64,000 bases of DNA from the NCBI GenBank assembly GCA_964016885.1, contig OZ024743.1:280798001-280862000 (forward strand), given 5' to 3'. The notes under the pieces are model-generated. The model searched no databases. It was not told the DNA's origin and worked only from the letters and a program-made list of their open reading frames with translations. Positions 37,115 to 37,202 of the stretch are shown one piece after another; position 1 is the first letter of the stretch; every line of letters starts with the position of its first letter. The stretch comes from Eledone cirrhosa. Lineage: Eukaryota. The translations under genes and the position numbers were made by a program.

Positions 37115-37202
37115 TCCTCTTGATAAGTCGGCAGACCTCGCAAGGACTCTATATCTTTGATATATTGTTTTTGTTTATGCCACGAAACTACGTAGTCGAG
37201 GA
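37115..37202 (+). ncRNA. Type I hammerhead with U3-A8 core (copy 1)
   Basis: TCCTC-TTGATAA-GTCGGCA...TGCCAC-GAAA-CTACGTAG-TC-GAGGA. Confidence 0.8.

Follow-up and report, generated by a model that had tools for sequence, protein, structure and literature searches.

A type I hammerhead motif with the core UUGAUAA, in which positions 3 and 8 form a U3-A8 pair, is fixed in a tandem non-LTR retrozyme family of about 5,900 copies and a 591-nt unit in Eledone cirrhosa. The preferred reading, to which we give a probability of about 0.8, is that this hammerhead likely cleaves itself out of tandem transcripts and that the resulting unit-length RNA likely circularises and likely returns to the genome at (TA)n through the RT and endonuclease of an autonomous Penelope-like element (PLE). 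One copy lies on the + strand of the window, which is the whole 64,000-nt stretch of DNA analysed.

The window copy is an 877-nt insertion (36992..37868, +) flanked by (TA)n tracts and recognised by its direct repeat and family structure. It consists of one 591-nt unit and a 286-nt partial second unit, and positions 36992-37277 and 37583-37868 are 100% identical over 286 nt. The (TA)n microsatellite of its 5′ flank (36470..36989) is the likely insertion target, and a shorter (TA)n (~37866-37888) follows its 3′ end. The hammerhead motif occupies 37115..37202 (+). Helix I has 5 bp in the sequence (37115-37119 with 37198-37202), and the core U3-U-G-A-U-A8-A9 (37120..37126) places U3 at 37120 and A8 at 37125. 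Helix II is a 57-nt irregular arm (37127-37183) closed by G10.1-C11.1 and followed by GAAA (37184-37187). The helix III region is a perfect 10-nt palindrome (37187..37196), and the GUC site carries C17, with cleavage predicted after 37197. A second, identical motif lies 591 nt downstream within the direct repeat (37706..37793, +; predicted cleavage after 37788). From cleavage to cleavage the monomer spans 591 nt (37198..37788, +), and its circular fold points to a predicted circular RNA intermediate.

The sequence-only reading had placed both departures from CUGANGA at positions 3 and 8 and had described stems I-III and the GUC site as intact. Both statements are borne out on the + strand at 37115-37202, with the qualification that helix III in the monomer consists of just 2 bp plus A15.1-U16.1. 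The motif is a type I hammerhead by its core, GAAA, NUH, helices I-III, and Watson-Crick 3-8 pair, with self-cleavage predicted. Across 14 copies, 99.1% of 462 cells are paired, and the core, GAAA, NUH, and helices I-III are all present, with helix I open. The heptamer YTGANRA occurs in the window at chance level (152 matches against 138.9 ± 12.4 expected). The motif itself is not a chance occurrence, because the 23-nt family pattern finds 5,954 genomic matches and 0 in a reversed control. The local 108-nt fold is of unremarkable stability (z -0.75). An Rfam scan of the motif returned no hammerhead family at the gathering score or at E <= 10, a miss in which the long helix II may play as large a part as the core.

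The genome searched comprises 3.0 Gb in 1,796 contigs and is rich in simple repeats. The family pattern accepts C or U at position 3 and G or A at position 8, and further patterns cover the remaining letters. By this search, 5,941 of 5,966 family copies carry U3-A8 and 0 of 5,966 carry C3-G8. The remaining 25 deviate at one of the two positions: 11 lack U3 (5 C, 4 G, 2 A) and all keep A8, and 14 lack A8 (8 G, 5 U, 1 C). TTGATAA is thus the genome-wide family consensus, a point that the sequence-only reading had proposed to check; one outcome that it named as fatal, a CTGATGA consensus with private mutations in the window copy, did not appear. The 591-nt family is young, so the invariance of positions 3 and 8 shows a consensus and not selection; taken alone, it is weak evidence for selection. 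In five diverged copies, ribozyme positions outside the search pattern are identical at 165 of 170 sites compared with 1,511 of 1,778 elsewhere, a contrast with a Fisher p of 1e-6 among copies that are not independent.

The word "swap", which presumes a C3-G8 predecessor, stands only in part: the matched U3-A8 pair is there, but a C3-G8 ancestor of the 591-nt family was not found, and for this family the swap is inferred. The canonical core combined with the 3′ half of the family has one genomic match, in a rearranged copy. This copy was rejected as a C3-G8 relative, its similarity to the 591-nt unit beginning downstream of the core. No C3-G8 sister appeared among 123 other loci or by the canonical-core pattern. 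A sensitive BLAST of the unit against these 123 non-family loci, which cover only a small part of the genome, found no relative, the exceptions being one rearranged family copy and TA-rich stretches. Some weak matches lay in flanking TA-rich DNA and were dropped. An exact 20-nt scan of metagenome contigs gave 0 matches.

Selection on the 3-8 pair is examined more directly by genome-wide counts of a generic pattern (core, G, 6-36 nt, C, GAAAC) compared with a reversed control, which is imperfect in a repeat-rich genome. With the 6-36 nt spacer, C3-G8 cores number 17,697 (control 818) and U3-A8 cores 32,185 (control 5,050, about sixfold). The mismatched cores, counted with 6-36 nt spacers only, stay at or near their controls: 1,091 versus 1,147 for U3-G8 and 1,544 versus 1,262 for C3-A8. 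Purine-3/pyrimidine-8 cores with the same spacer number 3,386 against a control of 7,768. Spacers of 37-67 nt give 8,609 C3-G8 cores (control 541) and 19,999 U3-A8 cores (control 2,692). Only C3-G8 and U3-A8 are therefore enriched far above control; U3-G8, C3-A8, and purine-3 cores are not. The total excess over control is ~44,400 for U3-A8 and ~24,900 for C3-G8 (about 1.8:1), where the counts are of copies rather than families, require G10.1-C11.1 and C15.2, and can include one core twice. The U3-A8 matches listed span many families with differing helices and palindromic helix III regions, and 8 of the first 100 listed for the 6-36 nt spacer belong to a repeat that has no clear helix I and is maybe not a hammerhead. 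In one large U3-A8 family, position 7 takes all four bases, with positions 3 and 8 fixed by the pattern.

A homologous pair of loci offers a second line of evidence. Locus L168 (U3-A8) and locus L169 (C3-G8) are 75% identical over 519 nt (E 1e-94). In a tree of 10 sequences, midpoint-rooted and with the core columns included, L168 nests within C3-G8 relatives: it is sister to L169 (90/89), the two form a clade with L170 (100/100), and the other seven sequences are all C3-G8. This arrangement suggests a C3-G8 to U3-A8 direction in the L168 lineage. Because only the two pyrimidine-purine Watson-Crick cores are enriched and because L168 and L169 differ by the matched double change, the data support selection on the 3-8 pair. 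The earlier preference for selection over decay gains support from the same two observations, and the catalysis on which such selection would act is predicted.

By pattern count, the sequences suggest that U3-A8 outnumbers the textbook core in the Eledone cirrhosa genome. A wider lineage reading is held tentatively, at somewhat under even odds: U3-A8 would be the main core, arising repeatedly from C3-G8 through the U3-G8 wobble in many retrozyme and Penelope families, with G3-C8, the best rescuing swap in the laboratory, absent and the ribozyme of the 591-nt family switchable. If that is true, more than half of the hammerheads in genomes of this kind would escape censuses based on CUGANGA. In some animals, tallies of hammerheads and retrozymes that rely on CUGANGA or on Rfam can be serious underestimates. 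The counts also provide natural, genome-scale covariation for an active-site tertiary pair, in tens of thousands of copies and many families, with both mismatch classes at background.

The fold of the ribozyme contains a predicted pseudoknot. Its first strand is six bases immediately 5′ of helix I (37108..37113, +), complementary over 6 bp to 37135..37140 (+) in the helix II internal loop (37134-37140). In 14 copies the outer pair is U-G in 8, U-A in 4, and C-G in 2, and it is never broken. Other long-helix-II families share the geometry with different sequences; in 14 representatives the mean pairing score is 11.4 versus 8.5 ± 0.75, and 0 of 5,000 cross-family permutations reach it, with windows picked post hoc, families partly related, and 4 of the 14 having no convincing pairing. 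Within the 591-nt family, stem covariation is mostly wobble change and shows no excess over shuffles (494 of 500 score as high for the first structure and 37 of 500 with the pseudoknot). In the available parts of PMC3088659, ~40% of representatives have a pseudoknot linking helices I and II, and fast cleavage depends on it.

The same strand has a second predicted partner. GAGG within 37108-37113 can pair with the 5′ strand of helix I (37116-37119) and block helix I, and the local ensemble assigns this hairpin a probability of 0.94-0.97 and helix I ~0, in a program that models neither pseudoknots nor dimers. In such a model the blocking hairpin could be the off-state of a monomer or circle; alternatively, it could mark a poor ribozyme. 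The helix III palindrome forms no stable hairpin in the monomer and cofolds between two copies at -12.9 kcal/mol. Since helix III is weak as a hairpin alone and makes a 10-bp helix between two copies, the modelled palindrome probably points to a double hammerhead between tandem copies. Double hammerheads have been described for PLE and amphibian motifs (PMC4209133, PMC7229834, in the portions available).

Family copies consist of head-to-tail units of ~591 nt with variable 5′ ends. Insertion structure was scored at 33 of 46 family loci after overlapping ones were dropped, and 16 of the 33 had been chosen for carrying a core variant. An inverted partial copy is present in 21 of the 33. Insertions end at unit position ~286 (31) or ~451 (21) in 52 of 54 cases, and 50 of these 52 fixed ends lead into TA-rich sequence. 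Among the 21 inverted loci, 17 combine an end of one class with an end of the other. The two fixed 3′ ends delimit a 165-nt stretch of the unit (37278..37442, +, in the window). No RT or endonuclease coding was found in the 591-nt unit among the ORFs of the window and loci examined, and the longest stop-free stretch, ~134 codons, resembles neither. The circular fold of the monomer has an energy of -174.0 kcal/mol compared with -134.8 ± 5.4 for 40 shuffles (z -7.3), none of which (0 of 40) is as stable. Its non-coding tandem units, dispersed copies, and self-paired monomer fit a non-LTR retrozyme with a predicted circular RNA. Lacking an RT and GIY-YIG ORF, the 591-nt unit is not an autonomous PLE.

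Several smaller observations concern the unit and its relatives. Six sequencing runs were listed, none of them catalogued as RNA, and contigs from four were compared. Runs X1 and X5 each contain one contig of 621 or 620 nt (the unit plus 30 bases) at a depth of ~8; their organism codes differ from that of the deepest run, and tandem DNA and a circle look alike in such contigs. A contig of run X6 (record 19) corresponding to window 36992-37156 has 26 differences at a depth of ~3, including a long T>C run. This run may be an A-to-I hyper-editing pattern of the opposite strand or an error, in a single shallow contig from a run not recorded as RNA. In most long-helix-II families, a 5′-splice-site-like GTRWG occurs soon after the cleavage site (window 37220-37242; L121-L135, L168-L170), followed by a branch-point-like CTAAT and pyrimidine runs, and diverged copies of the 591-nt family have TTTTTCAG at the start of the unit as used here. 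These splice-like signals are a possible relic of a PLE intron. Further tandem hammerhead repeats, with either core, have periods of 316, 466, 483, 560, 655, 691, and 700 nt (L048-L077, L115, L122, L129, L168, L169, L176), and one array on C1, with the 466-nt period, runs to at least 30 units. The window also holds three CUGAUGA motifs (9073, +; 32192, +; 32090, -) in which the helix I strands are complementary, helix II is weak, and helix III is an AT palindrome; the 32090/32192 pair sits in an inverted repeat, and the three motifs are a possible further hammerhead family.

Two fixed 3′ ends, frequent 5′ inversions, and (TA)n insertion together form a PLE signature, and by analogy mobilisation by PLE machinery is likely. 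PLEs form partial tandems and inverted 5′-truncated copies, carry a tail at one end, and target (TA)n (Craig et al. 2021, PMC8557442), and the tail of the Anolis PLE has been traced to two internal reverse-transcription start sites (Frangieh et al. 2024, PMC11167929), both as described in the accessible sections. Because the inversions, tails, (TA)n targets, and two 3′ ends match those of PLEs, PLE-mediated spread is the favoured route, and the 165-nt stretch (37278..37442) is likely the equivalent of the PLE tail. Through its fixed ends and inversions, the family connects the spread of retrozymes with the start of Penelope reverse transcription at two sites, a recent description; the link between retrozymes and PLEs has so far been argued mainly by distribution and sequence likeness.

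Candidate helpers are present in the genome. ORFs encoding RT and GIY-YIG carry RW, DKT, and CxCX5C motifs, which the available text of PMC8557442 gives for the Hydra clade, and U3-A8 motifs lie 0.7-1.2 kb 3′ of them (L180, L182). Hydra-like RT-GIY-YIG PLEs are, on these sequence features, candidate helpers for the 591-nt retrozyme. A terminal-repeat sequence common to the 591-nt unit and an autonomous PLE was not found among the 123 non-family loci, a small genome sample. The PLE labels rest on the motifs of PMC8557442, since a Pfam scan of 7 PLE protein pieces returned no match.

The window contains broken PLE pieces with RT and, C-terminally, GIY-YIG joined by a CxCX5C linker (33981-36476, +; 29077-30227, -), ending in (TA)n. 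The microsatellite in which the + strand piece (33981-36476) ends is the one ahead of the retrozyme. A search at the 3′ end of the window's PLE found no hammerhead. An assignment of these pieces to Naiad was rejected, as the C-terminal endonuclease and CxCX5C linker fit Hydra. At ~31117-31235 (+) lies a microsatellite-interrupted 3′-half remnant, compared by eye, of a second long U3-A8 family that is linked to Hydra PLEs. The commonest short U3-A8 family (L082:242-1700, L107) is a minimal hammerhead whose helix III is a 6-nt palindrome and whose site is GUA, located ~1 kb downstream of the end of a putative GIY-YIG-like ORF and mostly seen in short inverted pairs. The ORF has no match in Pfam. 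The segments at 39600-41340 (+) and 56813-61421 (+) are presumably decayed RT fragments of non-LTR retrotransposons unrelated to the hammerhead retrozyme.

The proposed mechanism begins when read-through transcription passes across a two-motif copy like the one in the window. The transcript would be cleaved after each GUC, probably as a double hammerhead, with the 6-bp pseudoknot (37108-37113 with 37135-37140) holding helices I and II together in place of the usual loop contacts. Refolding of the pseudoknot strand onto the 5′ strand of helix I would then inactivate the ribozyme in the monomer or in the circle, which a host ligase would close, as proposed for other retrozymes. PLE reverse transcription would start at either of two internal AU-rich sites and produce the two 3′ ends, and reverse transcription of more than one round of the template would produce tandem units. 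The U3-A8 pair itself most likely derives from C3-G8 in two transitions, with the U3-G8 wobble as intermediate, and would be retained because pairing of 3 with 8 places nucleotide 8 for catalysis.

The alternative that deserves most weight, though it is unlikely, is that the ribozyme is a passenger: selected in an ancestor, it now spreads because PLE proteins recognise the two start sites, and its cleavage is slow or unneeded. Mutants of a PLE hammerhead left insertion in vitro unaffected (PMC11167929, in the part available), and Naiad PLEs spread without canonical hammerheads in the accessible account of PMC8557442. Helix I is predicted to be blocked, and two pairs of adjacent copies each share a core mutation, which shows that mutant cores can end up in tandem. 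A passenger would nevertheless hardly be expected to keep 165 of 170 ribozyme positions in copies that are ~80-91% alike elsewhere; mismatched cores are not an enriched class genome-wide, and concatemers of integer units fit a circular or cleaved-and-ligated template.

Less probable still is a derivation in which the unit is the short terminal repeat (pLTR) that truncated insertions of a single autonomous PLE left behind, with satellite amplification following. A pLTR origin of retrozymes has been put forward (Li et al. bioRxiv 10.64898/2026.07.22.740005, in its available part), other U3-A8 families here are located 3′ of PLE ORFs, and the unit has splice-site-like signals, as pLTRs do. Against this stand the head-to-tail units in dispersed, separately truncated insertions, with no PLE ORF joined in the loci examined, and the restriction of similarity among the 123 other loci to one rearranged family copy and TA-rich stretches. 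The sequence-only reading had already opposed decay of a C3-G8 ribozyme, fixed by chance in the family founder, and the core counts largely refute it, leaving it very improbable. In its favour, both changes are transitions and the genome is AT-rich, but under decay single mismatches should outnumber double changes, whereas U3-G8 and C3-A8 are at or near control and U3-A8 is ~6 times control; many unrelated families, moreover, carry U3-A8. A retrozyme that likely cleaves itself and is likely mobilised by PLEs remains the preferred reading.

Exchanges at positions 3-8 were reportedly the subject of Przybilski and Hammann in 2007, and Lunse et al. are said to have treated dimeric PLE hammerheads in 2017. 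In the active fold, C3 and G8 pair in Watson-Crick fashion (PMC3884650, available portion), in agreement with what the sequence-only reading had stated. Natural U3-A8 cores were reported in 2011 (Perreault et al., PMC3088659; also PMC7151607), and ~1,300 U3-A8 motifs are known from Schistosoma PLEs, where the supplement includes the UUGAUAA heptamer (Cervera and De la Pena 2014, PMC4209133), all according to the accessible parts of these papers. The U3-A8 variant itself is therefore already published. Of the description "rare tolerated variant", natural occurrence holds, but rarity does not in this genome, where U3-A8 is the majority core by pattern count. A search that reached few subscription papers found neither U3-A8 as the majority core of a genome nor this 591-nt retrozyme in print. 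Also absent from the sources found was the combination of a long helix II and a predicted 6-bp pseudoknot that, from the sequences, appears to covary across families.

Published activity data give a mixed picture, as far as the available portions of the sources extend. One saturation study, on a type III hammerhead, found rescue of the 3-8 pair by the G-C swap alone (PMC9901934). The laboratory and natural solutions thus differ: the G-C swap works in mutagenesis, the U-A swap is used here, and a homologous natural pair exists. PLE minimal hammerheads are weak in vitro (PMC4209133), and the Anolis PLE hammerhead cleaved only with protein added, its cleavage being dispensable for insertion in vitro (PMC11167929). 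Among Xenopus retrozyme dimers, 8 of 9 gave no cleavage (bioRxiv 10.64898/2026.07.22.740005).

The comparisons that follow draw on the parts of each source that were available. The natural hammerheads of Perreault et al. 2011 (PMC3088659) include U3-A8 cores, as in the Eledone cirrhosa family, and pseudoknots that join helices I and II; for the Eledone cirrhosa family a pseudoknot is predicted, with its partner in an internal loop of the long helix II, and its 5′ strand is predicted to be able to refold onto helix I. Metazoan non-LTR retrozymes (PMC7229834; bioRxiv 10.64898/2026.07.22.740005) also have non-coding tandem units, one type I hammerhead in each, thousands of copies, a strongly self-paired predicted circle, and a weak helix III. 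A unit of 591 nt exceeds the circles of 170-400 nt (Cervera and De la Pena 2020, PMC7229834) and falls inside the consensus range of 51-972 bp (bioRxiv 10.64898/2026.07.22.740005). The U3-A8 core, PLE-type inversions, and two fixed ends distinguish the present family, and circular RNA has been demonstrated in those retrozymes, whereas it is predicted here.

Hydra-clade PLEs (PMC8557442) and the Anolis Poseidon (PMC11167929) resemble the family in their (TA)n targets, partial tandems, inverted 5′-truncated copies, and two-start tail. Unlike them, the 591-nt unit has no ORF, and its tail is ~165 nt rather than 30-40. The Cercyon PLE hammerheads of Schistosoma mansoni (PMC4209133) share core covariation, UUGAUAA, type I topology, a palindromic helix III, and dimer logic. 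However, the Cercyon motifs are mostly single and heterogeneous, have a helix II of 7-8 bp, and are tied to truncated PLEs, whereas the Eledone cirrhosa retrozyme is tandem and homogeneous, its helix II arm measures 57 nt, a pseudoknot is predicted for it, and its core is, by pattern count, the majority core of its genome.
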